Shown here: positions 155-64,000 of the stretch, piece by piece | Position numbering within the stretch: the stretch's first letter is position 1 | Layout of the letters: the number at the start of each line of letters is the position of its first letter | Assembly: GCA_001004905.1 (NCBI GenBank) | Contig: LCRY01000002.1 | Location: forward strand, 115,577-179,576 | Source of the DNA: Parcubacteria group bacterium GW2011_GWA1_56_13 | GTDB taxonomy: Bacteria; Patescibacteriota; Minisyncoccia; Phycocordibacterales; Phycocordibacteraceae | Direction of reading: 5' to 3' | DNA length: 64,000 bases | Made by a program: the position numbers and the translations under genes | Notes under the pieces: generated by a model | What the model was told of the DNA's origin: nothing | Database searches by the model: none | Seen by the model: the letters and a program-made list of their open reading frames with translations, nothing else

Positions 155-835
155 TTCAATTCATTTGCGCAGAAACTCGGCCTCTCGTTCAAAAAACCCA
201 ACTTGTTCATCGAGGCGCTCACGCACCGTTCGTATCTGAATGAGCATCGCGAGTACGCCGGCAACCACAACGAACGGCTGGAATTCCTCGGCGACGCCGT
301 GCTCGAGCTTGCTGCGACAAATTTCCTTTTCAAGAAATTTCCGGCAAGTCCGGAAGGCGAGCTCACGAGCTACCGCGCCGCGCTCGTCAACACCGTTTCA
401 CTCGCCGCGCTCGGGCAGGCGCTTGGCATGAGCGACTATCTCCTGCTCTCCCGCGGCGAGGCGAAGGATGTCGGGCGTGCGCGCGAGGCGATACTCGCAG
501 ATGCGTTTGAGGCGGTCATTGGCGCGATCTATCTGGATGCCGGCTACGAAAGTGCCGAGGCGTTCATCGCGAAGAATTTGTACGGCAAAATAGACGAGGT
601 CATCGCGAAACGTTCCTACCAGGACGCAAAAAGCCGTTTTCAGGAGATCGCCCAGGAAAAACGCGGCATCACGCCGCGGTATGAGACGCTTTCGGAAGAA
701 GGACCCGACCATGCGAAACTCTTTACGGTCGCGGTGTGCATCGGTTCGGAGGAGATCGCGCGCGGCAGCGGTCAATCAAAGCAGGAAGCCGAACAATCAG
801 CGGCGGAACGTGCGTTGATGAAAACGAATTGGTGA
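131..835 (+). CDS. rnc: Ribonuclease III
   Basis: ALTHRSY...ERLEFLGDAV RNase III signature plus C-terminal dsRBD (GSGQSKQEAEQSAAERAL). Start at ATG 131 (MRKLPMPDF), not 23. Confidence 0.9.
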   Translation: MRKLPMPDFNSFAQKLGLSFKKPNLFIEALTHRSYLNEHREYAGNHNERLEFLGDAVLELAATNFLFKKFPASPEGELTSYRAALVNTVSLAALGQALGMSDYLLLSRGEAKDVGRAREAILADAFEAVIGAIYLDAGYESAEAFIAKNLYGKIDEVIAKRSYQDAKSRFQEIAQEKRGITPRYETLSEEGPDHAKLFTVAVCIGSEEIARGSGQSKQEAEQSAAERALMKTNW

Positions 836-1017
836 GCAAGCAGATTCGAACACTATGCGCGCCGTTGCGCCGGGACCGTTCGGTATCTCCGCATCAATCT
901 TTTATATTTTCACCACGCTCGTAATTGCATACGGTCGAATAAAGCGCAAAAACACCGATGGCATATGTAGTGTGCGGACAGGGAGGCGAAGCGGCACCGT
1001 GCGAGACGGCTGACGCG

Positions 1018-1923
1018 TCAGCTTTGTACGCTGATATTCTCTACCCGATAATCATCGAATTTGATGTCCATGAAATCGGTGCGGATGCCGGCAAGGTTGG
1101 GGCCGATGATGGGCGGCGTGCCGCCGTAATTCTTTCCGGTATCGGTCGCAGAAAGAACTTCGGACCATGGAACCCGACCGCTGCGCTGCACATAGAGAGA
1201 CAACGTGACGCCACCGCCTACGTTCGTTATCGTCGTCAATTTGAGCCCGAACCATTCGTCATGCGGCAAAAGATTTCTGCTCGATCCACCGCCGCTTACC
1301 GAATAAACGCCCGGAAACAGCTTCGCTTGCGCCATGGTATAATATCTTCCTCGGTATTTTTTCTTGATCACCGCGGTTCCATCGACGCGGATGCCGCCAT
1401 AATAGAGCGTCTCGCCATTTCCGTTGTAACGGCTCATAAATAAAATCCCGTTCGAAGCGCCCCGATTCTGGCTCGCGGAGAAATTGTCCCTGGCAATATA
1501 GAATTGCGCCTGCTGACTGAAATTCTCCCACCGGCTTTTTGTCAGGAGGCGGAACAGATTTTGCGGACGAAAACCGTTATCGGTATCAATGGAGCTGGAG
1601 CGTCCATATGCAATGCGCCACCGGTCCTGCGAAGGAAGCATATATTGCAGCGTTTCTCCGATGCCGTTTTCGATGATCATCTCGCCGCCGGACTCAAGGA
1701 ACCAGTACGGGCTCGGACTTTTCTCCGCACTCGTCGTTTCGTGCAGAATGCCGGGTGCGTTGAAAGAATAAATGAATGTGTCCGTATCCGCATGAGGGAC
1801 ATTCCGCTCGTTCCGTCCTCCGGCTGCGAACAGGAGAAGTGCCGTTATCAAGAAGCTCGAGAGGGTGATGCCGGACACGGTGAGGAGGACAATACGAAGG
1901 CGGAAGAACCACTCATGCGTCAT
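1018..1923 (-). CDS. Secreted/membrane-anchored hypothetical protein, last gene of EPS operon
   Basis: Start MTHEWFFRLRIVLLTVSGITL (TM/signal). ATGA overlap with upstream deacetylase stop. No known motif. Confidence 0.5.
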   Translation of the reverse strand: MTHEWFFRLRIVLLTVSGITLSSFLITALLLFAAGGRNERNVPHADTDTFIYSFNAPGILHETTSAEKSPSPYWFLESGGEMIIENGIGETLQYMLPSQDRWRIAYGRSSSIDTDNGFRPQNLFRLLTKSRWENFSQQAQFYIARDNFSASQNRGASNGILFMSRYNGNGETLYYGGIRVDGTAVIKKKYRGRYYTMAQAKLFPGVYSVSGGGSSRNLLPHDEWFGLKLTTITNVGGGVTLSLYVQRSGRVPWSEVLSATDTGKNYGGTPPIIGPNLAGIRTDFMDIKFDDYRVENISVQS

Positions 1924-3524
1924 AGGGACTCGACCGCGAGACGGGTGAGTATTGCCTGCGCCTCCCCGGCAGAGGGCGTCCATACCGTCGCGCCGACGCC
2001 GCCACTTCTCGAGATCCCGGCCACAGAGCCGGCGACCCTGACCCCATAGGCACTACAGCTCGCAGTATCGCCCTGCACCGACATGGAAAAATCCGCCTTT
2101 GCCGGCAGTGCGGGCGGGGCATATGGCTTGTAGGCGATAGTTTCCAGTTTTTCACCATCATGCCGCTCGAGATATATGCGGTTGTTGGAAAATGCGCATA
2201 CCACGTACGGCGCATATTGTGCCGTATACCGGGCTAGGAGGGAGAACGTGCCATACTTCCACTCAGCGGATGCGTTCATCTTATAATCCGTCCACGTACC
2301 GCTGCCATCAAGGAACGCGGACGCTCCGGTCGAATCTTTCGAGGCCGATAATTCGAGTCCCGTATCGTCCGGTCGTACCGTCCCCCAATTCGATTTCCAT
2401 GCGGGACCGAAGGTAAACGCAGTGTGGGGCAGCGATTTGACAACGCCGCCGTTGAGGACTTCGAGAAGATGCGAGCTGCTCCACGACGCGGTGGGTTCGA
2501 TGCGTTTTATGAGATGGACATCCGGGTCCGGATGATTGAAGAAATCTCCGTTACCCGGCCATGTTTGGTAGAAATCGAATGGGTAGATCGTGGGGACGAC
2601 GCGGCTCAGCAGGGTGTCCGCCTGCGGCGCATTTATGCTGTCCTGGCCCAGATCGTTCAGGGGATAGGCGAATCCATCGACTACGATGTCAAAATTATTC
2701 TCAAGCAGCGTTTTTGCGGCCGTCAAGTCATTGGTGACGCGCGTCACGAATTCCGCGGGGGTTTCAATTCGTCCCGCATCCGGCAGCCAGAAAAAATTCG
2801 AGAGAAAATGCTGTCCGGGGACGAGTGTGAGGTCTTGTGCGGTAGACGTAGCGATGGGGACGCTGTAGGTCAAGTGATCTTGGTCGCCATGGCTTTCCAG
2901 GTCCCACCGGCCGCTCTTCACCATGTAGTCGAGTTGCGACTTTGAGAGGTAGAAATCGTTGAGCGGAACGTCGCCGTTCCCCGGCATCGAGAAACCGGTG
3001 ATCACGAACATGACGGCTGTGTAGCCGAAGTCCTTTAGCAGTGGATCGGCTGAATATAACGCATCCGAGCGTCCGTCATCAAAGGTAAGAAGGAATGATT
3101 TATCGGGGACCGTCCCCGTCCCCTCCATAAACGCCTTGAATTGTTCCATCGTGATGGTATGCCAGCCGGCATCCCTGAGCGCCCGCATGTGTTCTACGAA
3201 TACACGCATCGGCGGCATGGAAGTGGAATCTCCCTCGCCGTGATAGAGGAGCACGGGAACGCTTCGTGCCGACACCACGGACGAAGTAGCCGACTGGGCT
3301 TCCGTTCTGGAGGAGCCGGTAACTGCCGCGAGTGCCGCTTCGGGAAGCTTGAACCGTACCAGATAGTACAGCTCAGCCCGCGCGCGCTGCGCACTGTCGG
3401 TGAATGCATGCATCGCCGGCCGAGCGGACGCCGCAATGAGGAACGTTGACACGGTCACGACGAGGAGCGCGAGAACAACGATACCAAGGAAGCCGATTTT
3501 TTTGTTTGAAAGATCAACGAACAT
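1920..3524 (-). CDS. Polysaccharide deacetylase (CE4/NodB-homology domain) with N-terminal TM anchor
   Basis: LLTFDDGRSD and ESHGDQDH motifs typical of NodB/PgaB-type deacetylases. N-terminal hydrophobic helix. Confidence 0.8.
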   Translation of the reverse strand: MFVDLSNKKIGFLGIVVLALLVVTVSTFLIAASARPAMHAFTDSAQRARAELYYLVRFKLPEAALAAVTGSSRTEAQSATSSVVSARSVPVLLYHGEGDSTSMPPMRVFVEHMRALRDAGWHTITMEQFKAFMEGTGTVPDKSFLLTFDDGRSDALYSADPLLKDFGYTAVMFVITGFSMPGNGDVPLNDFYLSKSQLDYMVKSGRWDLESHGDQDHLTYSVPIATSTAQDLTLVPGQHFLSNFFWLPDAGRIETPAEFVTRVTNDLTAAKTLLENNFDIVVDGFAYPLNDLGQDSINAPQADTLLSRVVPTIYPFDFYQTWPGNGDFFNHPDPDVHLIKRIEPTASWSSSHLLEVLNGGVVKSLPHTAFTFGPAWKSNWGTVRPDDTGLELSASKDSTGASAFLDGSGTWTDYKMNASAEWKYGTFSLLARYTAQYAPYVVCAFSNNRIYLERHDGEKLETIAYKPYAPPALPAKADFSMSVQGDTASCSAYGVRVAGSVAGISRSGGVGATVWTPSAGEAQAILTRLAVESL

Positions 3525-3526
3525 AC

Positions 3527-4798
3527 TTAGCGAGTCCCCCAGTGATTATCGGCGATGGTTACGACGGCCCACGGCAACTGCCACATGAGGATCACGGTGT
3601 AGAACCAATAGCTGACGACGGCGGGAAACCAGTTGCGGTCCTGAGTGTAAATGCGGTAGTAGACCCCGTGCAGGAGGAGCATGAGGAAAAGTCCGGAGAG
3701 ATAGATTATCGGCAGTATGCCGTAAAAAATGGGTTCCCACATCACGGCATGGACGAAGACGATCGGGGCCGCGAACGCGAGAAATATGTAGCTGTAGAAA
3801 AAGAGAGCGGCTACAGTGTCTTTCTTCCATATGAACGACGCGGCGATAAAAGTTTCGCGCACCCAGCTTTTCTTCCATCGCTGCTGTTGTTTCCGGTACG
3901 TTTTGAAATTGTTCGGAACCACGGTATACGCTTTTGCTTCGCTCGAATATGCCGCCCGATAATTGCGCAGTACGTAATTGGTGAGCGAACGGTCGTCTCC
4001 GAACGTACATTCTTTCCCGAGGAAGGTCTGGTGCAGCCATTCGTCAATGAACTCATCAAGATAACTCTTACGATACGCGCTGCAGCATCCGGGACAGCAG
4101 GTAACGATTCCGAAAATGGATTCGGCGGCTTTGTAGACCTTGAAAGCGATATAGTAGCGCAGCGCCTGCATTCTGGTGAGGACGTTTTCGTCGTGGTTAT
4201 AGACATCCGTGTGTCCGGAGACGGCCCCGATCTCGGGAATCGTAAAATACTTGACCAGGTGCCGCACGCACGATGGCTCGATAAAGCTGTCGCTGTCTAT
4301 GAAGATGACTATCTCGCTTCGGGAGCGTCTCACGCCTTCATGCATGCCGTGGCGCTTACCGCGATTTTGTTTCCAATCCACTACCTCCACCCGCGCGACA
4401 CGCGGCGCTATGTCGCGCGCCGCGCGCCGCATCTCGGCAAGCGTCGTATCGGTTGAACCGTCATTGATGGCGATTACCTCTATCTTCTCGCCGGGATAAT
4501 CCACTTCGCTGAAACGTCGAAGTGTTTCGTAGATATTCTCGCCTTCGTTCTTTGCCGGTACAACGAACGCGACGGTCGGCTCATAGTCGTTGGCCAGCGG
4601 GACGCTTCGATGCAGATAGGAGAGCAGAAACCGCGAAAAGATATACAGAACGATAAGGATGCTGTAAGTGCCGAAGAAGACATTGCGGTTTATGTAGTTC
4701 CCCGTCGCTATCTTGATGAGTATGACGACATAGATCAAGCCGAAGAAGACGAGCCAAAATCCCATATCCAGGAGTTTGCGATTGGAAGATTCATTCAT
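3527..4798 (-). CDS. Processive family-2 glycosyltransferase (HasA/NodC/PgaC/chitin-synthase-like)
   Basis: 2 N-terminal and several C-terminal TM helices. DGSTD, DSD, GDDRSLTN and QQQRW (QxxRW) motifs. ~420 aa like class I hyaluronan/chitooligosaccharide synthases. Confidence 0.85.
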   Translation of the reverse strand: MNESSNRKLLDMGFWLVFFGLIYVVILIKIATGNYINRNVFFGTYSILIVLYIFSRFLLSYLHRSVPLANDYEPTVAFVVPAKNEGENIYETLRRFSEVDYPGEKIEVIAINDGSTDTTLAEMRRAARDIAPRVARVEVVDWKQNRGKRHGMHEGVRRSRSEIVIFIDSDSFIEPSCVRHLVKYFTIPEIGAVSGHTDVYNHDENVLTRMQALRYYIAFKVYKAAESIFGIVTCCPGCCSAYRKSYLDEFIDEWLHQTFLGKECTFGDDRSLTNYVLRNYRAAYSSEAKAYTVVPNNFKTYRKQQQRWKKSWVRETFIAASFIWKKDTVAALFFYSYIFLAFAAPIVFVHAVMWEPIFYGILPIIYLSGLFLMLLLHGVYYRIYTQDRNWFPAVVSYWFYTVILMWQLPWAVVTIADNHWGTR

Positions 4799-4862
4799 AT
4801 AGCATATAGGTCAGGAGCGGATGCCGCGCTGTGCGTCGTCGGAGGAACTGTTCGCATGACAA

Positions 4863-6140
4863 TTATCTTCCGATACCGTGGTACGCTATCCCGCTTGCGA
4901 CGAATTCTTCCTTCGGAAGGCAGTTGCGTCCGTCGATAAGGACGCGGACGCCATGAGAAAGGAAGTCCTTTGGGGAAAGCGAACGGAAAACGCTATGGTC
5001 GGTGGCGATTACGGCGGCGTTGGCTCCGGAGAGGGCCTCTTCGAGCGAGTGTGCGGTAGATTGTTCCGGAACGAACGGGTCGAATTTCCGTACCTGCGCG
5101 CCGCCCCTGTTCAGTTCGGTTTCGATGGCAAGTGCGGGGCTCTCGCGCAGGTCAGGCACATCCCGCTTGTACGCGAGTCCCAAAAGCGCGACGGCCGCAC
5201 CCTTGAGCGGCATATTCTTGCGGCGCAACAACTGCTCCAAACGATTCACGGTATAGCGCGGCATCTCGTTGTTGATCTGTCGCGCGGCGATGAGGAAGCG
5301 GTGCTCGAAACCGTTCTCTTTTCCATAGCGGATCAGATAGTAGGGGTCGACGGGTATGCAGTGCCCTCCCACCCCGCAGCCGGGGAAGTGTGGCATGAAG
5401 GCAAAGGGTTTTGTCGAGGCCCCCCTGATGACGTGCATGATGTCAATGTCGGCCTTATCGAACGACATCGCCAGTTCATTCACGAACGCGATGTTAATGT
5501 CGCGGAACGCATTCTCGACCATTTTCACCGCCTCTGCCTCTTTCATCGAGTTCATCGGCGTCACGGAAGCATCGATCAAAGATTCATATAAGAGGATCGC
5601 GCGTGCGTTACTGGTCGGGCCTGCGCCGCCGATGACGCGCGGCAAGGTCCGCGTCGTCCATGTCGCGTCTCCCGGATTGACACGTTCGGGACAATGCGCG
5701 AATGAAAAATCCTTTTCACAGACGAGGCCCGATTCGCGCTCGAGGATGGGCAGAGCGACGCTCTCGCATACGCCGGGATTCACTGTCGATTCGATGACGA
5801 CAAGTGCGCCTTTCTTCAGATGTCGGCCGACCGCCGTGCACGCCCCTACGAGCGGAGCAAGATCGGGGACATGTTCCTCGTTCACCGGCGTCGGCACGCA
5901 GATAATATGGGTCAGCGCCTCATCCAGTATGCGCTCGTCAGAACTCAAGCGCATGCGGCTTTTCCGAAAAGCCCTCGACTCCTCGTTTGAGAGGAACGGT
6001 GCGTTCCTTCCCTGCAAAAGCGCGATTTTTATCTTGTCTATATCGAAACCGACGACGCGGTGGCCCCTCGATTCGGCAAGAATGGCGAGCGGCAATCCTA
6101 CATATCCGAGTCCGATAACCGCAATCGTTCCGGTACTCAC
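4863..6140 (-). CDS. UDP-glucose/GDP-mannose dehydrogenase family (Ugd/WecC-like nucleotide-sugar dehydrogenase)
   Basis: GTIAVIGLGYVGLP Rossmann motif and catalytic GGHC. Likely GTG start giving MSTGTIAVIGLG at 6140; alternative ATGs at 6236/6269. Confidence 0.8.
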   Translation of the reverse strand: MSTGTIAVIGLGYVGLPLAILAESRGHRVVGFDIDKIKIALLQGRNAPFLSNEESRAFRKSRMRLSSDERILDEALTHIICVPTPVNEEHVPDLAPLVGACTAVGRHLKKGALVVIESTVNPGVCESVALPILERESGLVCEKDFSFAHCPERVNPGDATWTTRTLPRVIGGAGPTSNARAILLYESLIDASVTPMNSMKEAEAVKMVENAFRDINIAFVNELAMSFDKADIDIMHVIRGASTKPFAFMPHFPGCGVGGHCIPVDPYYLIRYGKENGFEHRFLIAARQINNEMPRYTVNRLEQLLRRKNMPLKGAAVALLGLAYKRDVPDLRESPALAIETELNRGGAQVRKFDPFVPEQSTAHSLEEALSGANAAVIATDHSVFRSLSPKDFLSHGVRVLIDGRNCLPKEEFVASGIAYHGIGR

Positions 6141-6294
6141 GCTTTCCGCGGCAAAGTCGACGTGTGCTTCAGTCGGCGTGGGGTGTGCATCAGACAACGC
6201 TGTCACACGGGATTCGCGGGCGCTCCGTATATCCATAGGCCCCAACGCTAACAGGTACACGATGAACAACCAGTGAATGCGCTATACTCAAAGC

Positions 6295-8532
6295 ATGTTG
6301 AAGCGGTTGGAGATCGTCGGATTCAAATCATTCGCCAAGAAAACGGTCTTGGAGTTCGCGAGCGCGACCACGGCGATCGTCGGACCGAACGGTTCGGGCA
6401 AGTCGAATGTGGCCGAAGCGTTCCGTTTCGCGCTTGGTGAACAATCAATGAAAAGTATGCGTGGGAAGCGAGCGGAGGATCTTATTTGGGGCGGCTCGCA
6501 TTCGGTTCCTCGCGCAAACCGCGGCTCGGTCGCCATCACGTTCGATAATTCCCGCCTGCCTGCGCAGGCAGGCCGCTCGTTCAGGATTGATTTTGACGAG
6601 GTCGTGATCGAACGGGCGGTTTTTCGCGACGGCACGAGCGAGTACTCCATCAACGGCTCGCGTGTCCGCCTGCGCGATATTCATGAGCTCTTAGCGAGCG
6701 CTAACATCGGCGAAACGGGCCACCACATCATTTCCCAGGGCGAATCGGACAGGATTCTGCTCGCCAATGCGCAAGAGCGGCGCGCGATGCTTGAAGATGC
6801 GCTCGGGCTCAAACTGTACGAATTCAAAAAACAGGAAGCGGCTCGGAAGCTCCTCAAGACCGAAGAGAACATCGCACAGGTCAACTCGCTCCGGAGGGAA
6901 CTCGCGCCGCACCTGCGGTTCTTGGAAAGCCAGGTGAAAAAGCTTGAACGAGCCGAAGAGCTCAAAAACGGACTTGTCGGACTCGCGCAGACCTATTTTG
7001 CCATCGAGGACGCGTATATCGCGCAGGAAAAGTCGAGGGTTAGTGCGGAGAAGAAGCGTGCGGCGGAGCGGCTCGCCGTCGCGGATGCCGAATTGAACCG
7101 AATCGCGGACCCGAAGACGGCGGATCACGAGACCGTCAAGCGGACCGAGATGTTGCGGAAGGCGGAGCGGGAAGTCGCCGAACTCTCCGCAGAGCGGGCG
7201 GCCCTTTCGCGCAACATCGGTCGCGTCGAGGGAGCACTCGAAGAAGTGAAACGCCGCGCGACCGTCGTTGCGCGCGAGCCGTACGCGAAAGTGCCGCGCG
7301 AGGAGCTTGAAGCGTTGCATCACGAAGTCGAGCGGCAGGCCGAAAGTGCCATGGGTGCCGACGGTACTCCCGAGGCGTTGCGCGCCGCGCTCACGGCTAT
7401 CCGCTCCGCGGTCAAGGTCTTCTTTTCGCGGCACGGAGCACCGCGCGACGAACGGTTTTCGGATGAAGAGGAATCCGCGTTCAAGCTGGAGACGGAACAC
7501 GCGGAACTCCTGAAAAAATATACGGCGGTGTCCGCCGCTCTTGAGAAAGCGGAATCCATACGCGCGCGCACGCGCGAGGCGATGGTCGCCTACGAAGAGA
7601 CCGGCCGCGAAGACCGCCGCCGCATTCTCGATTTCGCTCAAGCGAAGGCGCACGAAGAAGGCATCGTCGTCACATGCGAAGCGCGCGAACACGAACTTGC
7701 GCTTCTCCACGAAGCGCTTGAACGCGACAAACGCGAGGCGGTCGCCCTTGCGGGCCCGGCGGCGACTTCGTACATACCGCTTGCGGCGATGTCGCCGGAG
7801 GAACGCAAGGTTCAGGAGGACCGCAAACGCGCCTTGGAACGTATGAAGATCCGGTTGGAAGAAGCGGGAGGCACCGGCGAGGAAATACGGAGGGAACACG
7901 CGGAAGTGGCGGAGCGCGAAGCGTTCCTCGCCAAGGAACTCGACGACCTGGCGAAGTCGGCGGCCGGACTCGCCGCTCTCATCGGTGATCTAGACGCCGA
8001 ACTCGCGAAACATTTCTCCGAAGGGCTTGCGAAGGTCAACGCATCGTTCGGCGAATACTTCGCGCTCATGTTCGGCGGCGGCGGCGCCCGGCTTACACTT
8101 GAGGAACCGGAAGAACCAGAAGAACTGGACGGGGAGGAACAGGAAGAAGCCGTTGATGAACCGCAACCCGAACGGCGGCCGGGCATAGAGATAGCGGTCA
8201 ATCTGCCGAAGAAGAAGGTACGGTCCCTGATGCAGCTTTCAGGCGGCGAGCGCGCTCTCACATCCATTGCGCTCATATTCGCGATGAGCCAGGTGAATCC
8301 GCCGCCATTTTTGATACTGGACGAGACCGACGCCGCGCTTGATGAAGCGAACAGTCGGCGCTACGGCGACATGATAGAGAATCTCGCGAAAAAATCCCAA
8401 CTCATCGTCATCACCCACAACCGCGAAACGATGAGCCGCACGAACGTTCTCTATGGCGTTACCATGGGCGGCGATGGCGTGAGCAAATTGCTCTCGGTCA
8501 AATTCGAGGAAGCGGTAGCGGTCGCGAAATAA
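6295..8532 (+). CDS. smc: SMC-family chromosome segregation ATPase, unusually short (~745 aa)
   Basis: N-terminus MLKRLEIVGFKSFA...IVGPNGSGKSN (Walker A). C-terminus LSGGERALTSIALIFA...LDETDAALD (signature/Walker B). Coiled-coil middle; no obvious glycine-rich hinge. Confidence 0.75.
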   Translation: MLKRLEIVGFKSFAKKTVLEFASATTAIVGPNGSGKSNVAEAFRFALGEQSMKSMRGKRAEDLIWGGSHSVPRANRGSVAITFDNSRLPAQAGRSFRIDFDEVVIERAVFRDGTSEYSINGSRVRLRDIHELLASANIGETGHHIISQGESDRILLANAQERRAMLEDALGLKLYEFKKQEAARKLLKTEENIAQVNSLRRELAPHLRFLESQVKKLERAEELKNGLVGLAQTYFAIEDAYIAQEKSRVSAEKKRAAERLAVADAELNRIADPKTADHETVKRTEMLRKAEREVAELSAERAALSRNIGRVEGALEEVKRRATVVAREPYAKVPREELEALHHEVERQAESAMGADGTPEALRAALTAIRSAVKVFFSRHGAPRDERFSDEEESAFKLETEHAELLKKYTAVSAALEKAESIRARTREAMVAYEETGREDRRRILDFAQAKAHEEGIVVTCEAREHELALLHEALERDKREAVALAGPAATSYIPLAAMSPEERKVQEDRKRALERMKIRLEEAGGTGEEIRREHAEVAEREAFLAKELDDLAKSAAGLAALIGDLDAELAKHFSEGLAKVNASFGEYFALMFGGGGARLTLEEPEEPEELDGEEQEEAVDEPQPERRPGIEIAVNLPKKKVRSLMQLSGGERALTSIALIFAMSQVNPPPFLILDETDAALDEANSRRYGDMIENLAKKSQLIVITHNRETMSRTNVLYGVTMGGDGVSKLLSVKFEEAVAVAK

Positions 8533-8534
8533 TC

Positions 8535-9848
8535 ATGGCGGCATTTGAATACTTCAAGACCAACGTAGAAAAAGCGGCAAGCTTGCTCGGACTATCGGAA
8601 GCAGAGCGAAAAGCGCTGGAGAAACCGGACCGCATCCTCCGGGCGGAGCTTGAAATAGAGATGGATGATGGAAAAAAGGAAAGGTTTCCTGCATACCGCG
8701 TCCAGTTCAATAACGCACGCGGCCCGTACAAGGGCGGCATCCGATTTCATCCGAACGCCGACGAGGACGAGGTGTCGGCGCTCGCCGCGATGATGGCGGT
8801 AAAGTGCGCCGTCGTTGGCATTCCCATGGGCGGCGGCAAGGGCGGCGTCGCCGTTGACCCGAAGAAGCTGTCGAGAGGTGAGATACATCGCCTCTCGCGC
8901 GCATACGTACGGGCATTCGCCGACAACTTAGGGCCCGATACCGATGTGCCAGCGCCGGACGTCTACACCAATCCGGAGATCATGGGTGTGATGCTCGATG
9001 AATATGAAAAGATCGTCGGGAAGAAGTCTCCTGCAATGATCACCGGCAAGCCGGTCGAGCTCGGCGGAAGCTTTGGCCGAGATACGGCGACCGCGGATGG
9101 CGCAATGGCGGTCCTCGAAGCGTTTTTCAAAGACCGCAGGTTCGATCCGAAATTCCTCACCGTTGCCATACAAGGAGTGGGGAACGCGGGTGCGCAGGCG
9201 GCGCGGCTCGCATGCGCGATGGGCATGAAAGTCGTTGCGCTCGCCGACTCGCATGGCACGCTCAAAAGCCGGCGTGGCATTGACGTCGAGAAAACGCTTT
9301 CAATAAAGGAGGAAAAAGGTTCGGTACGCGACCTATACTGCCAGGGCTCCGTCTGCGACGCAACGCGGCTTGCAGAGGACGATGCAGAGATCCTCGCGGC
9401 CGATGCGGTCATCGTCGCGCAAGCAGACGTGCTCATTCCGGCGGCGCTTGAGGAGCAGGTTCGCAAAGAAAACGCCCCGGACGTCACAGCAGACATCATT
9501 TTGGAGATCGCGAACGGCCCTGTCACTCCTGAGGCTGACGAAGTACTCGCGTCAAAAAATACGACCGTGATACCGGATGTGCTTGCGAATGCGGGCGGCG
9601 TGACGGTTTCCTATTTTGAATGGCTGCAAAATCGTTCCGGCGAGCACTGGACGAAAGAAGTTGTGCGTGCGCGGCTTTTGGAAACGATGACCAAGGCCTA
9701 TCGCGAGATCGCCGATTTCGCGAAGGAACGGGACATCACGCTGCGCGAAGCGGCCTACGCGCTCGCGCTTACGCGCATCATCGGGGCGATGAAAGCTCGG
9801 GAGAAGCTTCGGCCGAACGATTTCGCACGCGCTGATACGCCAATATAA
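8535..9848 (+). CDS. gdh: Glutamate dehydrogenase (Glu/Leu/Phe/Val dehydrogenase family)
   Basis: KGGIRFHPNADEDEV...GIPMGGGKGG active-site region and NAD(P)-binding GVGNAG. Confidence 0.9.
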   Translation: MAAFEYFKTNVEKAASLLGLSEAERKALEKPDRILRAELEIEMDDGKKERFPAYRVQFNNARGPYKGGIRFHPNADEDEVSALAAMMAVKCAVVGIPMGGGKGGVAVDPKKLSRGEIHRLSRAYVRAFADNLGPDTDVPAPDVYTNPEIMGVMLDEYEKIVGKKSPAMITGKPVELGGSFGRDTATADGAMAVLEAFFKDRRFDPKFLTVAIQGVGNAGAQAARLACAMGMKVVALADSHGTLKSRRGIDVEKTLSIKEEKGSVRDLYCQGSVCDATRLAEDDAEILAADAVIVAQADVLIPAALEEQVRKENAPDVTADIILEIANGPVTPEADEVLASKNTTVIPDVLANAGGVTVSYFEWLQNRSGEHWTKEVVRARLLETMTKAYREIADFAKERDITLREAAYALALTRIIGAMKAREKLRPNDFARADTPI

Positions 9849-10051
9849 ACCACTGGATGCCGGTAATGGTCTGCGATATCGCTGCGAGCCATAAATGGAG
9901 GGTTGCCATCGTTGCCGCCGCGATGAGTAAGATCAGGCCGGTTGAAATGCTGGAAGCGAGCGGCGGCTTCTCTTGTGCGCGCAGCATCGGGATGAGGGTT
10001 ATGCAGAAGAATATCTGAACTGCCGTAAGCGCGTAATCTTGCCACATATCT

Positions 10052-12004
10052 CTATGTTGCGGGGACGAAGTCCAATTCTTTTTCGGGAATTCGTGCGGCG
10101 ATGAGCTTCACGCGGATAGGATCGCCGAGCTGGAAGGCCTTTTTCGTGCGGCGCCCGACGAGGCGGTAGTGCTTTTCATCGTATTCAAAATAATCGTCAC
10201 CGACGTCCTTGATGCGTATCATGCCGTCGGCGTGCGTGGTCTGCTCTTCGACGTACAGTCCGCGTTCCGTAACGCCCGAAATAACGGCGTCGAATTCCTG
10301 GCCGACTTTGTCGGCCAAGAATTCGACCTGCTTCATTTTAATGGAATCGCGCTCGGCGTCGGAAGCCGCAACTTCGCGCTCGGACGCGTGAAGCGCGAGA
10401 GTGTCGAATTCCTGCATCTCCTGCGGAGTGATCGGAACGCCGCCTGCGTGCGCTTTGATGAGCCGGTGGATAACGAGGTCGGGATATCTGCGGATCGGAG
10501 AGGTGAAGTGCGTGTAGAAGTCGAAGCCCAGACCGAAGTGGCCGATGTTCTTCGTCGCGTACACCGCCTTCGCCATAGACCGCAACGTTGCGGTCTTTAT
10601 GAGATATTCTTCCGGCTTTCCCTTTACTCCCTCCAGGAGGCGGTTCAATTCGGCGCCCGTAACGCGGCCCGCCTGCGTTTTGAGGTTGTAGCCGAGGACG
10701 CGGAGGAAATGAGCGAGATTCTCGATACGATCGGTGTCCGGAGTTTCGTGGACGCGATAGAGGGAGGCGAAATGCGGCCCGCCGTTCGCCGTGAGTTCGG
10801 AGAGATATTTTGCGACCGCTTCGTTGGCGAGAAGCATGAAATCCTCGATAAGGAGGTTCGTCTCTTTCCGTTCCTTGAGAGTGATGGCGATGGGCTTGCC
10901 CTCGGCATTGAGCTTCACCTTGACCTCGGCGGTATCGAATTCTATGGCGCCCTTCGCCTGGCGGGACGTACGTATCTTTTTTGAAAGGTCGAGCAGTGTA
11001 GAAAGCTCCGCATGCATGACGCCCGTTCCCGCGTCGAGCACTTCTTGCGCCTCTTCGTACGTGAAGCGCTTCTTTGAATGGATGACCGTCTCACCGAACC
11101 AGGTATCGAGGATGCGCGCATCGCCGTCGAGCGTGAAGACCGCCGAGACCGCGAGCCGGTCCTCGTTCGGTCGGAGCGAGCAGAGGTCGTTGGAAAGTAT
11201 CTCGGGGAGCATCGGGATGGTGCGGTCAACGAGGTAGACGCTCGTGGCGCGGTGGACAGCTTCCTTATCGAGCGCGCTTCCGGGCTTTACGAAAAAAGAG
11301 ACGTCGGCGATATGAACACCGACTTCCGTCGTGTTGTCCGGAAGGGCGCGTACCGAAAGGGCGTCGTCGAAATCCTTCGCGTCAAAGGGGTCAATGGTGC
11401 ACGTCGCGATTCCCCTGAAATCGCGACGTTTTGGGTTCTTCGCTTCATCGGCGAGCGTGAGGCGTCCGTGTTTTTCAAGATATTCCGCATCGGCGACGGC
11501 GCCGGGAGGGAAGTCGCTCGCGAACCCTTGCCCGAGCGCCAGCGCGCGCATTTCGGTTTCGTGCACGCCGGCCTTGCCGATAACCTCTTCAATAGTACCG
11601 AGCGGATACTCCTTATCAGCGGGCCACTCCCCGAGGCGCACAAGAAGTTTGTCGCCGAGATGCGCATTGCCCCTATCCATAATAACGATAGGGACATGCA
11701 TCTTCTTATAGTCGGGCGCAAGCAGGGTGAGCCCATTTTCTTCAATGAGCGTACCGACGAACGTCTCGCGCGCGCGGGAAATTATTTCGACTACCTTGCC
11801 TGCCGCTCTGGGGGGCATCCGCCCCGAGGGATCGCGATATGCGCCTGCCGGAGCGACCTTCACGATGTCTCCCGAAAGGGCGTGATTCGTCCACTCGCTT
11901 GGGATAAGCAGGTCCTCCGTGTCTTCGCCCACGGGAAAAAACCCGATGCCTTTCCGGGTCATCGTTATCGGACCCTCGTATATGATGTTCGCATCTGCCG
12001 ACAT
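10052..12004 (-). CDS. rnr: Ribonuclease R / RNase II family 3'-5' exoribonuclease
   Basis: 650 aa with cold-shock/OB N-terminus, RNB catalytic core and C-terminal S1-like region (GMIRIKDVGDDYFEYDE). Confidence 0.88.
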   Translation of the reverse strand: MSADANIIYEGPITMTRKGIGFFPVGEDTEDLLIPSEWTNHALSGDIVKVAPAGAYRDPSGRMPPRAAGKVVEIISRARETFVGTLIEENGLTLLAPDYKKMHVPIVIMDRGNAHLGDKLLVRLGEWPADKEYPLGTIEEVIGKAGVHETEMRALALGQGFASDFPPGAVADAEYLEKHGRLTLADEAKNPKRRDFRGIATCTIDPFDAKDFDDALSVRALPDNTTEVGVHIADVSFFVKPGSALDKEAVHRATSVYLVDRTIPMLPEILSNDLCSLRPNEDRLAVSAVFTLDGDARILDTWFGETVIHSKKRFTYEEAQEVLDAGTGVMHAELSTLLDLSKKIRTSRQAKGAIEFDTAEVKVKLNAEGKPIAITLKERKETNLLIEDFMLLANEAVAKYLSELTANGGPHFASLYRVHETPDTDRIENLAHFLRVLGYNLKTQAGRVTGAELNRLLEGVKGKPEEYLIKTATLRSMAKAVYATKNIGHFGLGFDFYTHFTSPIRRYPDLVIHRLIKAHAGGVPITPQEMQEFDTLALHASEREVAASDAERDSIKMKQVEFLADKVGQEFDAVISGVTERGLYVEEQTTHADGMIRIKDVGDDYFEYDEKHYRLVGRRTKKAFQLGDPIRVKLIAARIPEKELDFVPAT

Positions 12005-12036
12005 TTCCCGTACTCTAGCAATATAACCCCGCTTCT

Positions 12037-12084
12037 GCTATACCACCACACCAACTTTGCGCTGAAGTTGGTGTGGTGGTATAG
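12037..12084. repeat. Perfect 20-bp-stem inverted repeat (ctataccaccacaccaactt ... aagttggtgtggtggtatag) in rnr/rpsP divergent region
   Basis: Exact reverse-complement arms with a 7-nt loop. Right arm carries TGgTATAGT, an extended -10 located 7 nt before the rpsP ATG. Confidence 0.45.
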
Positions 12085-12092
12085 TCGCCCTC

Positions 12093-12581
12093 ATGTTGAT
12101 GATACGATTTCAGCGCATCGGCCGGACCAATGATCCGGCATTTCGCATTGTCGTGCTCGAAAAGGAGCGCGCGGCAAAGACGGGCAATATCGTCGAACTT
12201 CTCGGCACCTACAATCCGCGGAGCAAGGCGCTGACATTGGATGAGGCGAAAGTAAAGGGATGGCTCGCCAAAGGCGCCCAGCCGACCGGCTCCATTCATA
12301 ATCTTCTCATCACGAAGGGTGTTATACAGGGAAAGAAGGTGAACGTGCTCTCCAAGAAGACGCCGCAGAAAGGGGAGAGTGCGGAGCCCGCACCTGCTGT
12401 GCCGACGACCGAGAAGGAAGCCGTCCCGACGGAAGCGCCGACCGAAGCGGAAATAATCGCCGAAGTCGCAGGTACTGACGAGGGAAGCGCGGTTCCCGCC
12501 GAGAAAGCTCCGGAAGAGACGCCTGTAACGGAAGACGTGTCCGCCGAAGCTTCGGCGAAGGAGGAGAAACCGGCCGCGTAA
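12093..12581 (+). CDS. rpsP: 30S ribosomal protein S16 with ~75-aa Ala/Glu/Pro/Thr-rich C-terminal extension
   Basis: MLMIRFQRIGRTNDPAFRIVV...LGTYNP matches the S16 N-terminal domain. Low-complexity acidic tail. Confidence 0.85.
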   Translation: MLMIRFQRIGRTNDPAFRIVVLEKERAAKTGNIVELLGTYNPRSKALTLDEAKVKGWLAKGAQPTGSIHNLLITKGVIQGKKVNVLSKKTPQKGESAEPAPAVPTTEKEAVPTEAPTEAEIIAEVAGTDEGSAVPAEKAPEETPVTEDVSAEASAKEEKPAA

Positions 12582-31740: not shown

Positions 31741-32547
31741 TTATCTCACGGGTCGAACTACGATAATGCGCGGCTTATCGTACTGGTCGGTGCGTATCGC
31801 GGCTGGAAGACCTTGTCGCGCGAACAGCGCGCACACGGCTTCCGCGTGGCTCGTGTCGCATTCTATCCACGCGACGCCTCCTGTTGCGAGATGTTTCGGG
31901 AGGTCTTTCGCGATGCGGCGGATGACTGCAAGGCCGTCGTCTCCGGCGTACAGCGCGCCGCTCGGCTCGTACTCGGCGACGCTCGACGGAAGCACTTGGT
32001 TGGCGGGCACATAGGGCGGGTTCGCGGCGATGATATCAAACTGCATGCCGGCGAAAGGTTCAAAGAGGTCGCCGATGCGCACATCCGCGCGCGAGCTGTC
32101 GAGGCCGTTCTCGCGTATGTTCTTTCGAATGATTGCCTCGTGCGCGGGGTCGAGCTCGCCGAAATACACCTGTGCGTTCGGCAGGCGCGCGAGCGGCGCA
32201 CAGCCGATAGCGCCGCTTCCGGCACAGAGGTCAAGGAAGTGCAGTTCATGAGTGCGATTTCCGGGCACAGAATCATTTTCTGCTGAAAATGTTCTTCCTG
32301 CTCGATCCGTCGATCTGTGCAGAGTCCCAGAAATCGCACTCATGAGCTGCTCCGTCCACCATTCCGTTTCGGGGCGGGGAATGAGCGGTTTCGAGTCCAG
32401 ATAGATTTTCAGGCCGAGAAAGGGCTGCCAGCCGATGACGTATGCGAGCGGCTCGCCGCGGACGAGCCGCTCGCGGTCCGCTTCGTATGCCGGTGTGCGG
32501 AGGCCGCCGTATTTCTCGTCCAATAGCAGCCGTTCATCTCGGGTCAT
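31741..32547 (-). CDS. prmC: Release-factor glutamine N5-methyltransferase (HemK) carrying an in-frame palindromic-element insertion
   Basis: LDLCAGSGAIG SAM motif, NPPY catalytic motif, PRPETE linker. Linker region expanded by ~25-30 aa that coincide with repeat copy B. Confidence 0.85.
   Translation of the reverse strand: MTRDERLLLDEKYGGLRTPAYEADRERLVRGEPLAYVIGWQPFLGLKIYLDSKPLIPRPETEWWTEQLMSAISGTLHRSTDRAGRTFSAENDSVPGNRTHELHFLDLCAGSGAIGCAPLARLPNAQVYFGELDPAHEAIIRKNIRENGLDSSRADVRIGDLFEPFAGMQFDIIAANPPYVPANQVLPSSVAEYEPSGALYAGDDGLAVIRRIAKDLPKHLATGGVAWIECDTSHAEAVCALFARQGLPAAIRTDQYDKPRIIVVRPVR
32251..32338. repeat. ~88-bp palindromic element, copy B, located inside the prmC reading frame
   Basis: tcatgaGTGCGATTTcc...ATTTTCTGCTGAAAAT...ccagAAATCGCACtcatga; ~75% identical to copy A (21301-21392) with the same architecture. 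Confidence 0.6.
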
Positions 32548-32561
32548 AATGGGAAAACTAG

Positions 32562-32605
32562 CACAAAAAAAAACAACACGCGGCCCCGAAAGGCCGCGTG
32601 TTGTT
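32562..32605 (-). terminator. Intrinsic terminator of the RRM-protein gene (14-bp stem aacaacacgcggcc/ggccgcgtgttgtt; T9 on minus strand)
   Basis: Perfect 14-bp stem; the A9 tract on plus equals a U9 tract after the hairpin on the minus-strand transcript. Confidence 0.65.
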
Positions 32606-32622
32606 TTCTCGGCGAGAGAAAA

Positions 32623-32991
32623 TTAGTATCCGCCGCGGCCATAGCCGCCGCCACCGCCGTATCCGCCGCGCTCACCGCCTCCGAAACCGCCTTCGCGGCG
32701 CGGAGGACGCTCGCCTTGCGGACGAGCAAAGGAAACGGAGAGCGTGCGCCCGTCCATCTCCTTGCCATCCCAACGATCTATCGCCGCCTGTGCCTCCGCT
32801 TCGGAGGACATTTCGACGAAGCCGAAGCCGCGCGAGCGGCCCGTCATGCGATCGCTGATAATGCTCGCGGACACGACCGAGCCGGCCTCACCAAAGGCCT
32901 TCTTAAGGTCATCTTCCGTCGAGCGGTAGGGAATACCGCCCACGTAGAGCTTGTTTCCCTGAACACCACCTGCTGACTGCTGATTATCCAT
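32623..32991 (-). CDS. RRM-domain RNA-binding protein with Gly/Arg-rich tail
   Basis: RNP-2 LYVGGIPY and RNP-1 RGFGFVEM motifs. C-terminal GGYGGGGGYGRGG repeats. Confidence 0.8.
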   Translation of the reverse strand: MDNQQSAGGVQGNKLYVGGIPYRSTEDDLKKAFGEAGSVVSASIISDRMTGRSRGFGFVEMSSEAEAQAAIDRWDGKEMDGRTLSVSFARPQGERPPRREGGFGGGERGGYGGGGGYGRGGY

Positions 32992-33143
32992 GTATTGGAT
33001 TTAACTGATTAACCTCGCCGAAACTGAACACGTGTGGTCTTGTGGACCCTGCGACGCTCGAATACTCTGCGAGTTGGGGGAGTATGACAGGAATATGCTC
33101 GGAACGCAAGCGGCGTAACGGCGCGCTGGGGATAATACCCGTC

Positions 33144-33917
33144 GGGCAATACAAGGTTCCACCTTGTATTGCCCGGCGGTGATAAGATTATCGGCATGAA
33201 TAGAAAAATTTCTTTTGCCGAAGGGGAGTACTATCACGTTTACAGCAGGGGAGTCGAAAAACGCAAAATTTTTTTGGATGGCAAAGATCGGGAGCGCTTC
33301 CAGGCGCTTTTATTTTTGTGCAATGGTTCAAAACCAGTTGTGTATAGATTGATACAAGGTTCCACCTTGTATCAAACTGATGTGGGGGAAAAGATTGTCG
33401 CCGTCGGTGCCTATGCGTTTATGCCGAATCATATTCACATCTTGGTCAAGGAAATTTCAGAAAATGGCATTACTGAATTCATGCGGAAAGTGAACACTGC
33501 CTATTCAATGTATTTCAATAAAAAATACGAGAGAGTCGGGCCTCTTTTCCAAGGTACTTTTGCCGCTGAACATGTAACCCGAGATGAGCACTTGAAATAT
33601 TTATTTGCCTACATCCACTTAAATATCGTAAAACTCATCGAGCCAAAATGGAAAGAAGAGGGAATTAAAGATCTGAAAAAAGCGAGAGGGTATCTTGAAG
33701 CGTACCCGTTTTCGAGTTATTCGAGCTACACCGGGAAAGTGCGCAAGGAAGATACCATATTGTCAAAAAATGAGTTCCCAAAATATTTCTCGCATCAACA
33801 TGATTTCAAAGATTTTGTTGACGAATGGCTCACATTCGGCCCGCAAAATTTTGACCCGTAGCACAGAATTCCAGTACAAGGTGGAACCTTGTAATACAAG
33901 GTTCCACCTTGTACTGT
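33144..33917 (+). mobile_element. REP-associated tyrosine transposase (RAYT) unit: tnpA_REP gene flanked by REP hairpins
   Basis: REP hairpins gggcaatacaagg-ttcca-ccttgtattgccc at 33144-33176, an internal copy at 33351-33373, and a double inverted copy (44-bp perfect palindrome) at 33873-33917. Local GC ~45%. Confidence 0.7.
33196..33861 (+). CDS. IS200/IS605-family Y1 (HUH) transposase, REP-associated (TnpA_REP/RAYT)
   Basis: YHVYSRGV N-terminal motif, HUH motif MPNHIHILV, catalytic Tyr region AYSMYFNKKY. Start MNRKISFAEGEYYH. Confidence 0.8.
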   Translation: MNRKISFAEGEYYHVYSRGVEKRKIFLDGKDRERFQALLFLCNGSKPVVYRLIQGSTLYQTDVGEKIVAVGAYAFMPNHIHILVKEISENGITEFMRKVNTAYSMYFNKKYERVGPLFQGTFAAEHVTRDEHLKYLFAYIHLNIVKLIEPKWKEEGIKDLKKARGYLEAYPFSSYSSYTGKVRKEDTILSKNEFPKYFSHQHDFKDFVDEWLTFGPQNFDP

Positions 33918-34232
33918 CTTGTGGTGGAAGGAACACGACAGAGTATTGGAAAAGCGCAAGTTCTTAAAAAAAGAAGTGGGGATAAGCGTTTAAACGTCGC
34001 ATCATGAAGGGCGTTACGCGCGGAAGTGTATAACTTTCGCCGTAGCGTGGCGTATTTACTAGCTTTTATTGGATGTCCACATATCCACAGGCCAAGCCGC
34101 TTGACCTACATGTTGATTTTATGAAGAGAAAGCGTATGGTTCGCATGTTAGGGGCAATAGACCTCCAAAAGGCCTTTCTTACGAGACCTCCAAGGGGCCG
34201 CCTTTATTAAAGTGCATAGCGCTTCATTAACC

Positions 34233-37037: not shown

Positions 37038-37115
37038 TCGGTTTTCTCCACATAAACAACCCCCGCTTCGGCGGGGGTTGTTTATTTGTGAGATTCATTG
37101 TATCGTGATGACCAC

Positions 37116-38114: not shown

Positions 38115-38175
38115 GTTCCCCCGCGAGGGTGGGGATAAGGACGAGCGCCGCATACCTCCGTACTACGATTATTGG

Positions 38176-60037: not shown

Positions 60038-62710
<2,673 letters not shown>

Positions 62711-62742
62711 GTATTCACGCACGTGATATTCTGAATTCAACT

Positions 62743-63930: not shown

Positions 63931-63932
63931 AT

Positions 63933-64000
63933 ATGCAAAAAAGAGAACTGCATAAATATAATCTGCCAGATGTGCCGGGGGTGTACCTCTTTTTGCAAAA
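63933..64000 (+). CDS. uvrC: Excinuclease ABC subunit C, N-terminal fragment (window edge)
   Basis: MQKRELHKYNLPDVPGVYLF matches the UvrC GIY-YIG N-terminus (L.(D)LP..PGVYlf). Confidence 0.5.
   Translation, partial: MQKRELHKYNLPDVPGVYLFLQ

Follow-up and report, generated by a model that had tools for sequence, protein, structure and literature searches.

Class I hyaluronan synthases (HAS), which are encoded by streptococcal hasABC operons, by hasACB operons on pXO1-type plasmids of Bacillus anthracis and Bacillus cereus, and by Chlorella virus and vertebrates, are single membrane glycosyltransferases of family 2 (GT2) of about 420 amino acids. The pgaABCD and icaADBC systems are likewise synthase-dependent, with an extracytoplasmic, metal-dependent carbohydrate esterase of family 4 (CE4) that removes part of the N-acetyl groups from the chain as it is made, and nodBC pairs a GT2 synthase with a CE4 enzyme. 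[quoted passage not shown] Here we describe a four-gene cluster in a 64,000-nucleotide stretch of DNA (the window; contig LCRY01000002.1, positions 115,577–179,576) from Parcubacteria group bacterium GW2011_GWA1_56_13, a member of the candidate phyla radiation (CPR), and compare it with these systems.

The cluster occupies the minus strand within window positions 1018–6269, where the listing of open reading frames (ORFs) bore out the four co-directional genes of a first-pass annotation made from the sequence alone. In order of transcription they encode a nucleotide-sugar 6-dehydrogenase (DH; 4863–6236, 457 amino acids from an ATG at 6236, the start in public records), a membrane-embedded GT2 synthase (3527–4798, 423 amino acids), a type II membrane-anchored CE4 de-N-acetylase (1920–3524, 534 amino acids) and a fourth protein, P4 (1018–1923, 301 amino acids), consisting of a transmembrane anchor and a jelly roll. 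We put at roughly 55% the probability that these proteins form a synthase-dependent surface system of a monoderm-type CPR bacterium (Kaiserbacteria/Paceibacteria), coating the cell with a glycan similar to chitin or hyaluronan, de-N-acetylated in part and probably acidic or zwitterionic.

The GT2–CE4–P4 order recurs in ~25 independent Paceibacteria-type genomes, with identities to the window proteins of 60–78% for GT2, 30–57% for CE4 and 40–56% for P4 (taxonomic labels of related loci are those of the depositors of the metagenome-assembled genomes, MAGs); because of this recurrence the arrangement is not attributable to chance. The DH gene lies directly upstream of the synthase gene in 17 of ~24 informative Paceibacteria loci. 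The cluster had been called unexpected in a reduced, CPR-like bacterium; it is instead widespread and strongly conserved in Paceibacteria, of which it is characteristic and where it is not anomalous. The high identity of the synthase across many Paceibacteria suggests that it belongs to an important part of the envelope and was not acquired sporadically. Surface glycans of CPR bacteria are almost unstudied, although these organisms account for a large share of bacterial diversity and are apparently mostly host-attached; a literature search for hyaluronan synthase, chitin synthase or deacetylase in CPR bacteria (Patescibacteria, Parcubacteria) gave one passing mention only, of Amazon Parcubacteria MAGs carrying a 'hyaluronan synthase' annotation (PMC6064768).

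Profile and structure searches agreed with the processive HAS/NodC/chitin-synthase type first proposed for the GT2 and with a synthase-type operon. Pfam Glycos_transf_2 matched at 101 bits (E = 9e-29) and Chitin_synth_2 at 79 bits (E = 4e-22; cut-off 27 bits); Chitin_synth_1 also matched and no PilZ domain was found with Pfam. The best NCBIfam model was NodC (TIGR04242), at 180.4 bits against a cut-off of 550 and over model positions 39–304 of 395 only; PgaC/IcaA (TIGR03937; 123.7 bits, cut-off 422) and CelA/BcsA (TIGR03030; 27 bits, cut-off 699) also fell short of their cut-offs. In the PDB the single sequence gave strong matches to class I HAS only (CvHAS, E = 5e-32, CvHAS residues 173–458 aligned), and a profile of 30 family sequences scored 153 bits with XlHAS1 and 134 with CvHAS, as against 34–36 with chitin synthases and 36 with BcsA. 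The best matches in the searches run were HAS and NodC and not DPM1-like enzymes. Hydropathy analysis indicated two N-terminal and at least two to three C-terminal membrane segments, and the topology is that of class I HAS: two N-terminal transmembrane helices (approximately amino acids 12–30 and 40–62), a cytosolic GT-A domain, and C-terminal interface and transmembrane helices (~331–412).

The motifs expected of such an enzyme are in place. D168-S-D170 (4289–4297) is the DxD motif, invariant in the family and across HasA, NodC and PgaC and aligning with the DxD of CvHAS. GDDRSLTN (amino acids 267–274; 3977–4000) corresponds to the G(D/E)DR catalytic-base motif and QQQRW (amino acids 304–308; 3875–3889) to QxxRW, both by alignment with the family, CvHAS and reference sequences and both where the first-pass annotation had located them; KKSWVRE, directly after QQQRW, resembles SKSWCRE of CvHAS. 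WGTR (amino acids 420–423; 3530–3541) aligns with CvHAS 455–458 and is the exact C-terminal end of the window GT2, as it is of B. anthracis HasA and an Enterococcus faecium HAS-like protein; in the reference alignment NodC reads WLSR at this point and continues into a tail, and neither GDDR nor WGTR is present in PgaC. A further motif, CCPGCC (amino acids 234–239; 4082–4099), lies in the HAS 'switch loop' region, where HasA has CSGPLS and NodC CCGPCA; it may be comparable to the PGC loop of chitin synthases. All five (DSD, CCPGCC, GDDR, QxxRW and WGTR) were invariant on alignment of 30 family homologues. CCPGCC aligns with the switch-loop residues of CvHAS, which are 267–271 (PMC12987647).

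In tblastn searches against plasmids, a Paenibacillus GT2 was 38.5% identical over 92% of the query (amino acids 35–423) and HasA 30.9% identical and collinear over its full length, including the C-terminal membrane region (amino acids 67–423); NodC was 32–35% identical over the catalytic domain only, the alignment ending at about amino acid 320, and PgaC ~25% identical over a partial alignment (approximately amino acids 57–351). A neighbour-joining tree (56 sequences, 353 columns, 200 bootstraps), which is distance-based and was built from tblastn segments, gathered the Paceibacteria GT2s in one clade with 99% bootstrap support. This clade joined Actinomycetota- and Gammaproteobacteria-labelled MAG sequences, a high-GC IMG/VR contig (L051) and the Paenibacillus sequences at 95%; HasA, the E. 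faecium HAS-like protein, NodC and PgaC all fell outside, so that Ugd-linked HasA-type loci are excluded. Because of the alignment, the scores below cut-off and this tree, the synthase would appear to work like a class I HAS or a chitin synthase while remaining separate, a member neither of HasA nor of NodC or PgaC. As a separate observation, GT2s from thaumarchaeal MAGs (Nitrosopumilaceae/Nitrososphaeraceae; L033, L034 and L035), 28–29% identical and aligning through the C-terminal WGTR, grouped with the clade of the window GT2 at 70% bootstrap.

The DH contains three UDPG_MGDP_dh domains (Pfam, E = 1e-21 to 1e-38) and passed the cut-off of the TIGR03026 subfamily (400.8 against 189.8 bits). 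Models of the N-acetylhexosamine (HexNAc) type scored 307 bits (archaeal UDP-N-acetylmannosamine (UDP-ManNAc) dehydrogenase), 254 (TviB) and 235 (WecC), compared with 173 (AglM), 147 (TuaD) and 43 (enterobacterial Ugd) for models of the glucose type; in the PDB, 4r16 (a putative UDP-ManNAcA dehydrogenase) and Cap5O gave 249 and 210 bits and UDP-glucose dehydrogenases at most 144. The catalytic-cysteine motif GVGGHCIPVDPYY (from amino acid 290), containing GGHCIPVDPYY, matches GVGGHCIAVDPWF of WecC and not YGGYCLPKDTKQ of Ugd, the core GGHCI.VDP being common to the window DH and Escherichia coli WecC whereas Ugd has GGYCLPKD. Genes neighbouring related synthases were typed by comparison of bit scores within 4.5 kb; cluster-linked DHs of this type are 33–35% identical to E. 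coli WecC and 23–27% to E. coli Ugd, and the Ugd-type DHs of the hasA loci of B. anthracis and E. faecium are only 24–28% identical to the window DH. As judged from sequence, the DH is in the WecC/Cap5O/WbpA/TviB (UDP-N-acetylhexosamine) branch and is not Ugd/HasB-like. The first-pass annotation had typed it as Ugd, as in hasAB, and the model scores, the identity to WecC, the GGHCI.VDP motif and the hasA-locus comparison together contradict this; the hasAB analogy fails on the type of DH, although the classes given for synthase and deacetylase, and the kind of product in general terms, stand.

With TviB, WbpA, WecC and Cap5O the window DH shares its branch of the UDPG/MGDP dehydrogenases and its motif; it differs in falling below all equivalog cut-offs, in having no WecB or TviC partner nearby, and in being linked to a processive GT2 and not to Wzy/ABC-type capsule, O-antigen or enterobacterial common antigen pathways. 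Because neither the 64-kb window nor ~640 kb of related loci yielded a homologue of WecB (UDP-N-acetylglucosamine (UDP-GlcNAc) 2-epimerase), UDP-GlcNAc would be the simplest substrate. As the DH is of the WecC/TviB type, the predicted acid sugar shifts from glucuronic acid (GlcA) to an N-acetylhexosaminuronic acid.

This bears directly on whether the cluster could be a genuine, hasAB-like hyaluronan operon making a GlcA–GlcNAc polymer, which we regard as very improbable. Many homologues are labelled 'hyaluronan synthase' by JGI, HAS are the closest solved structures, and the window GT2 shares with class I HAS its length, topology, catalytic motifs and WGTR terminus as well as a nucleotide-sugar DH gene directly upstream. 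The DH is not, however, of the UDP-glucose type; the GT2 lies outside the HasA clade with ~31% identity and has CCPGCC in its switch loop as opposed to (S/G)GPL; the cluster contains no hasC/galU gene and adds an extracytoplasmic CE4–lectin protein and P4; and hyaluronan is not known to be de-N-acetylated by a dedicated operon partner. The 'hyaluronan synthase' labels in public metagenome annotations are therefore probably wrong about the product.

The third protein matched Pfam PF01522 (Polysacc_deac_1, E = 3e-8) and PgaB/IcaB models (E = 1e-17 to 4e-11, with 1e-17 for PgaB), although below the equivalog cut-offs (63 bits against 322 for PgaB, 43 against 248 for IcaB); an alignment with BpsB (5bu6, E = 5e-13) spanned TFDDG and HxxxxH. 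Its AlphaFold2 (AF2) model (pLDDT 90.8) has a transmembrane helix at about amino acids 10–32 and a helical stalk to about amino acid 69, followed by the catalytic domain (~88–345; 2490–3263) with TFDDG at 147–151, H212-x4-H217 and, upstream, YH95; Foldseek matched the model to BpsB, PgaB, IcaB and PplD (E = 1e-16 to 1e-12). In 42 homologues D149, D150, H212 and H95 were invariant and H217 was conserved in at least 90%. By analogy with PgaB, D149/D150, H212, H217 and H95 would supply the catalytic base, metal ligands and catalytic acid. Where PgaB has a glycoside-hydrolase domain (GH153, a TIM barrel), the window protein has a CBM66-like/L-type-lectin-like β-sandwich (approximately amino acids 365–534; 1923–2432) with an invariant cysteine pair, C443/C490; Foldseek matched this domain to CBM66 (4b1m; E = 7e-9, target TM-score 0.78) and also to the lectins VIP36 and ERGIC-53. 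The protein is thus modelled as a membrane-anchored PgaB/IcaB-like de-N-acetylase, its activity being predicted. Of the 'NodB/PgaB-type' assignment made earlier, the PgaB/IcaB part stands, with metal and base residues kept, and the NodB part does not, as profile searches gave no match between NodB and the window CE4.

This likeness raises the question of an icaADBC/pgaABCD-like system for PNAG (β-1,6-GlcNAc polymer). By sequence and fold alike, PgaB, BpsB and IcaB, which deacetylate PNAG, are the nearest to the CE4, and the PgaC/IcaA model did reach 124 bits on the GT2, far below its cut-off. The two systems have in common their synthase-dependent logic and the partial de-N-acetylation of a nascent chain outside the cytoplasm; the window GT2 belongs, however, to another GT2 subgroup and clade, with only ~25% identity to a PgaC that lacks GDDR and WGTR, the genes have no small PgaD/IcaD-like membrane protein encoded between them, there is no PgaA porin, and the lectin-like domain stands in for GH153. 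We consider a PNAG system highly unlikely. Hardly more probable is a NodC-like pathway yielding short de-N-acetylated chito-oligosaccharides, as signals or lipid-linked intermediates, instead of a polymer. NodC is the top NCBIfam model, a same-subgroup GT2 with 32–35% identity over the catalytic domain, and the pairing of synthase and deacetylase recalls nodBC; but the score of 180 bits is far below 550, the similarity ends at about amino acid 320 ahead of a different C-terminus (WLSR and not terminal WGTR), and the anchored, extracytoplasmic CE4 is unlike the small cytosolic NodB, to which it is unrelated at the level tested. Two lectin-like surface modules would also suit a polymer better.

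The second of these modules, P4, is the founding member of a family that Pfam does not cover, and it accompanies the synthase and deacetylase as a conserved partner. It has an N-terminal transmembrane helix (amino acids 3–34) and a concanavalin-like jelly roll of ~250 amino acids (1024–1785; AF2 pLDDT 90.5), and gave no sequence match in Pfam, NCBIfam or the PDB, in the last case even at E up to 1. There are 382 close homologues, all 'hypothetical', and 670 representative clusters in a library of 1.8 billion proteins; the family has 47 invariant columns. Foldseek ranked CBM66 first (E = 8e-9, target TM-score 0.71), followed by DUF1080 hydratase, GH16 and PL14 folds, and a viral structure library returned only generic jelly-roll receptor-binding or tail proteins. 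Elsewhere the domain is found repeated in tandem and in fusions with GH5, with GH6 plus a peptidoglycan-binding domain, and with CE4, PKD, BACON, fn3, FG-GAP and, in one CPR locus (L050), heparinase II/III-like domains. P4 and the CE4 C-terminal domain thus resemble CBM66 and other concanavalin-like modules in fold, and P4 also in its modular occurrence beside carbohydrate-active domains; P4 differs in lying outside every Pfam and NCBIfam family by sequence, its carbohydrate binding being predicted. We somewhat favour a polymer-binding module for P4; that it processes the polymer enzymatically is a less probable but serious alternative.

Two further proposals for P4 were rejected. It shows no sequence similarity to the CE4 C-terminal domain, only the fold being common to both, which rules against a duplication. 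A GH16-type hydrolase is unlikely as no ExDxxE-like motif is present, only one glutamate is invariant and the GH16 folds are weak matches; a lyase role is possible.

The same WecC-type DH adjoins the same synthase clade on a Paenibacillus plasmid, on L051 and in an Actinomycetota MAG. The Paenibacillus cellulositrophicus locus (plasmid NZ_CP045296.1, 263–270 kb; L045, 5103–11198), the nearest relative detected in an organism in culture, encodes in the order of the window a WecC-type DH (41% identical to that of the window; absent from the PLSDB gene table), a GT2 and a two-domain CE4, and differs in the N-terminal PilZ domain of its GT2, implying probable control by cyclic di-GMP, in a GH18 gene where the window has P4, and in a CE4 that seemingly lacks the catalytic residues; SFEDG replaces TFDDG and no His-x4-His is seen in the alignment, and this copy may be catalytically inactive. 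L051, probably bacterial or prophage DNA, has the same DH–GT2–CE4 triad at 36%, 43% and 31% identity, respectively. In the CPR locus L050 the DH (53% identical) is followed by a more divergent Chitin_synth_2 GT2 and directly thereafter by a single protein of 1372 amino acids (8001–12119) that joins heparinase II/III-like N and C domains, CE4 and a P4 domain. Such a fusion connects P4 in function with the deacetylase. As the heparinase II/III fold is that of lyases and epimerases of uronate polysaccharides, its joining with CE4 and P4 is also independent, if circumstantial, evidence that the polymer contains a uronic acid. Further downstream L050 carries a Wzz/ParA-type tyrosine-kinase-like gene, a DUF4012 gene and a sortase gene.

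That the DH might belong with UDP-ManNAc dehydrogenases of an unrelated pathway had been named as a finding that would count against the first-pass scheme. It does group with UDP-ManNAc dehydrogenases, but the pathway is not an unrelated one, because its linkage to the synthase is kept across distant lineages and synteny extends across phyla. Searching IMG/VR with the 30-sequence GT2 alignment gave no match; a broader alignment recovered L051 and, besides it, giant-virus-sized contigs with HAS-like GT2s, where the neighbouring DH is Ugd-type or absent, unlike the WecC-type DH of the window.

We propose that the system would operate as follows. The DH would oxidise a UDP-N-acetylhexosamine at C6, most simply UDP-GlcNAc to UDP-GlcNAcA, the UDP-linked form of N-acetylglucosaminuronic acid. 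The GT2, whose family is established by the matches above, would polymerise UDP-sugars on the cytosolic face, probably UDP-GlcNAc together or alternating with the uronic acid derivative, and pass the growing chain across the membrane by a channel of its own. Outside, the anchored CE4, which has the fold and catalytic residues for it, would strip some of the N-acetyl groups while its CBM66-like domain held the chain, and the anchored P4 may bind the same polymer and retain or organise it at the surface or, less likely, trim it. The secreted, partly de-N-acetylated hexosamine polymer put forward in the first-pass annotation, there possibly with uronic acid, is upheld as the most reasonable product, with the uronic acid now of the HexNAc type. 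The cluster would be a variant of synthase-dependent exopolysaccharide systems, its product possibly new.

Several findings weigh against this proposal. About 30% of related loci lack a DH gene next to the synthase; seven have none upstream, and two of these carry a short, opposite-strand Ugd-like gene. Because of this the acid sugar may be dispensable, variable or not universal, and the 64-nucleotide gap between the DH and GT2 genes would allow separate transcription of the former. The DH scored below the equivalog cut-offs of WecC (459 bits), TviB (592) and archaeal UDP-ManNAc dehydrogenase (750), and UDP-GlcNAc, UDP-ManNAc or another nucleotide sugar are all candidate substrates; CalS8, a PDB match in the same branch, presumably acts on a glucose nucleotide and not on a HexNAc one. 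The dense invariant polar residues of P4 would fit an enzyme too. Nor could the donor sugar be read from the synthase: K177 and R341 of CvHAS, which contact the GlcA carboxylate (PMC12987647), correspond to K148 and R307 in the window GT2, but both are equally conserved in NodC and PgaC and do not discriminate.

The same gap and the same loci without DH would also fit a chitin/chitosan-type system, in which the GT2 makes a β-1,4-GlcNAc homopolymer that the CE4 converts in part to chitosan, the DH feeding another glycan or being accessory. Both chitin synthase models of Pfam match the GT2, its CCPGCC motif may be comparable to the PGC loop of those enzymes, the best NCBIfam model is a chitin-oligomer synthase, and a chitinase-like GH18 gene follows in the Paenibacillus relative. 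Set against this are the linkage of a WecC-type DH to the synthase clade in at least four distant lineages, that GH18-bearing locus included; the fusion in L050 of CE4 and P4 with a fold that acts on uronic-acid polymers; and the scores with solved structures, 34–36 bits for chitin synthases against 134–153 for HAS. We consider a chitin/chitosan system unlikely, though more worth keeping in mind than the hyaluronan, PNAG or NodC-like alternatives.

As to the loci with Ugd-like genes (L012, 6031–6837; L044, 3180–4031; strand opposite to the GT2), the L044 copy is of 283 amino acids with N-terminal and central domains only, and the two belong to one Paceibacteria GT2 subclade without an upstream WecC-type DH.

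The glycan-coat proposal can be taken further, and here we are more tentative, holding the following as a whole to be possible but rather less than even. The polymer would be an undescribed chitin/hyaluronan-like chain of GlcNAc and GlcNAcA, partly de-N-acetylated and zwitterionic, forming a conserved envelope or attachment layer of these episymbionts; P4 would represent a new carbohydrate-binding or carbohydrate-active family with specificity for the polymer; and the module, which occurs in Paceibacteria and related lineages as well as on a Paenibacillus plasmid and in some Actinomycetota, would be the counterpart in prokaryotes, and possibly the source, of the UNGD–CHS8–CDA1 cluster. In that cluster as defined previously (PMC4059230, PMC7053769) the same three enzyme types are adjacent as in the window, the likeness being one of gene content and adjacency; the window cluster adds P4 and the lectin domain on CE4. 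Should GlcNAcA be part of the product, this would represent a new class of synthase-made polymer between chitin and hyaluronan, and a candidate for mediating attachment to the host or for protecting reduced cells. The cluster also offers a prokaryotic handle on the unexplained UNGD–CHS8–CDA1 cluster, with a cultivable relative in Paenibacillus, and two surface modules, the P4 family and the CE4-linked lectin domain, that have no current family annotation.

With regard to the layout of the locus, the GT2 and CE4 genes are separated by 2 nucleotides and the CE4 and P4 genes overlap by ATGA, both as first described; the gap between DH and GT2, given as 2 nucleotides, is in fact 64 nucleotides from stop to start codon (4799–4862) and is the only junction of the cluster that is not tight. 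Scanning for consensus sites gave no promoter-like or terminator-like match in this spacer, and over 700–6500 the number of such sites did not exceed that in shuffled sequence, every one lying inside coding regions. Alternative starts for the DH are a GTG at 6140, chosen in the first-pass annotation, and a TTG at 6269, which gives the longest ORF; because DH homologues align only from about residue 38, GTG 6140 would be as plausible a start as ATG 6236. Identical DNA is present in contig DQGO01000017.1 of the NCBI MAG GCA_003531405.1, in which P4 is a hypothetical protein of 'Candidatus Kaiserbacteria'.

In 16 related loci (L007, L008, L009, L012, L014, L015, L016, L017, L019, L020, L025, L026, L032, L042, L043 and L044), an OmpR-type response regulator (53–82% identical) and a HisKA sensor kinase are encoded within a few kb of DH–GT2–CE4–P4 and mostly directly upstream, for example at L042 1222–2965, which suggests dedicated two-component regulation of the cluster in those relatives. 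No homologue of this pair was found in the 64-kb window at E < 1e-8.

The cluster is flanked by two plus-strand genes, a divergent SMC-like gene starting at 6277 and a convergent gene for RNase III whose end is at 835. The former (6277–8532), divergent from the DH gene, encodes an SMC_N/AAA_23 protein of only 751 amino acids, with the same length in the identical contigs; canonical bacterial SMC proteins are considerably longer. The window as a whole contains no tRNA genes and no Rfam family at the gathering threshold, and its remainder carries housekeeping and type IV pilus genes of the kinds usual in CPR bacteria. At 37098–40459 (plus strand) a gene for a CAP-domain protein (cysteine-rich secretory protein family) precedes genes for T2SSE (PilB-like ATPase) and T2SSF (PilC-like); this is a locus for type IV pili such as CPR bacteria typically have. 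G+C content is 0.54–0.62 over most of the window and dips to 0.49–0.52 at 32001–36000 and 62001–64000; an ORF of 941 amino acids (34212–37037) lies in the first of these dips, a region that may represent acquired DNA or a surface-protein gene.

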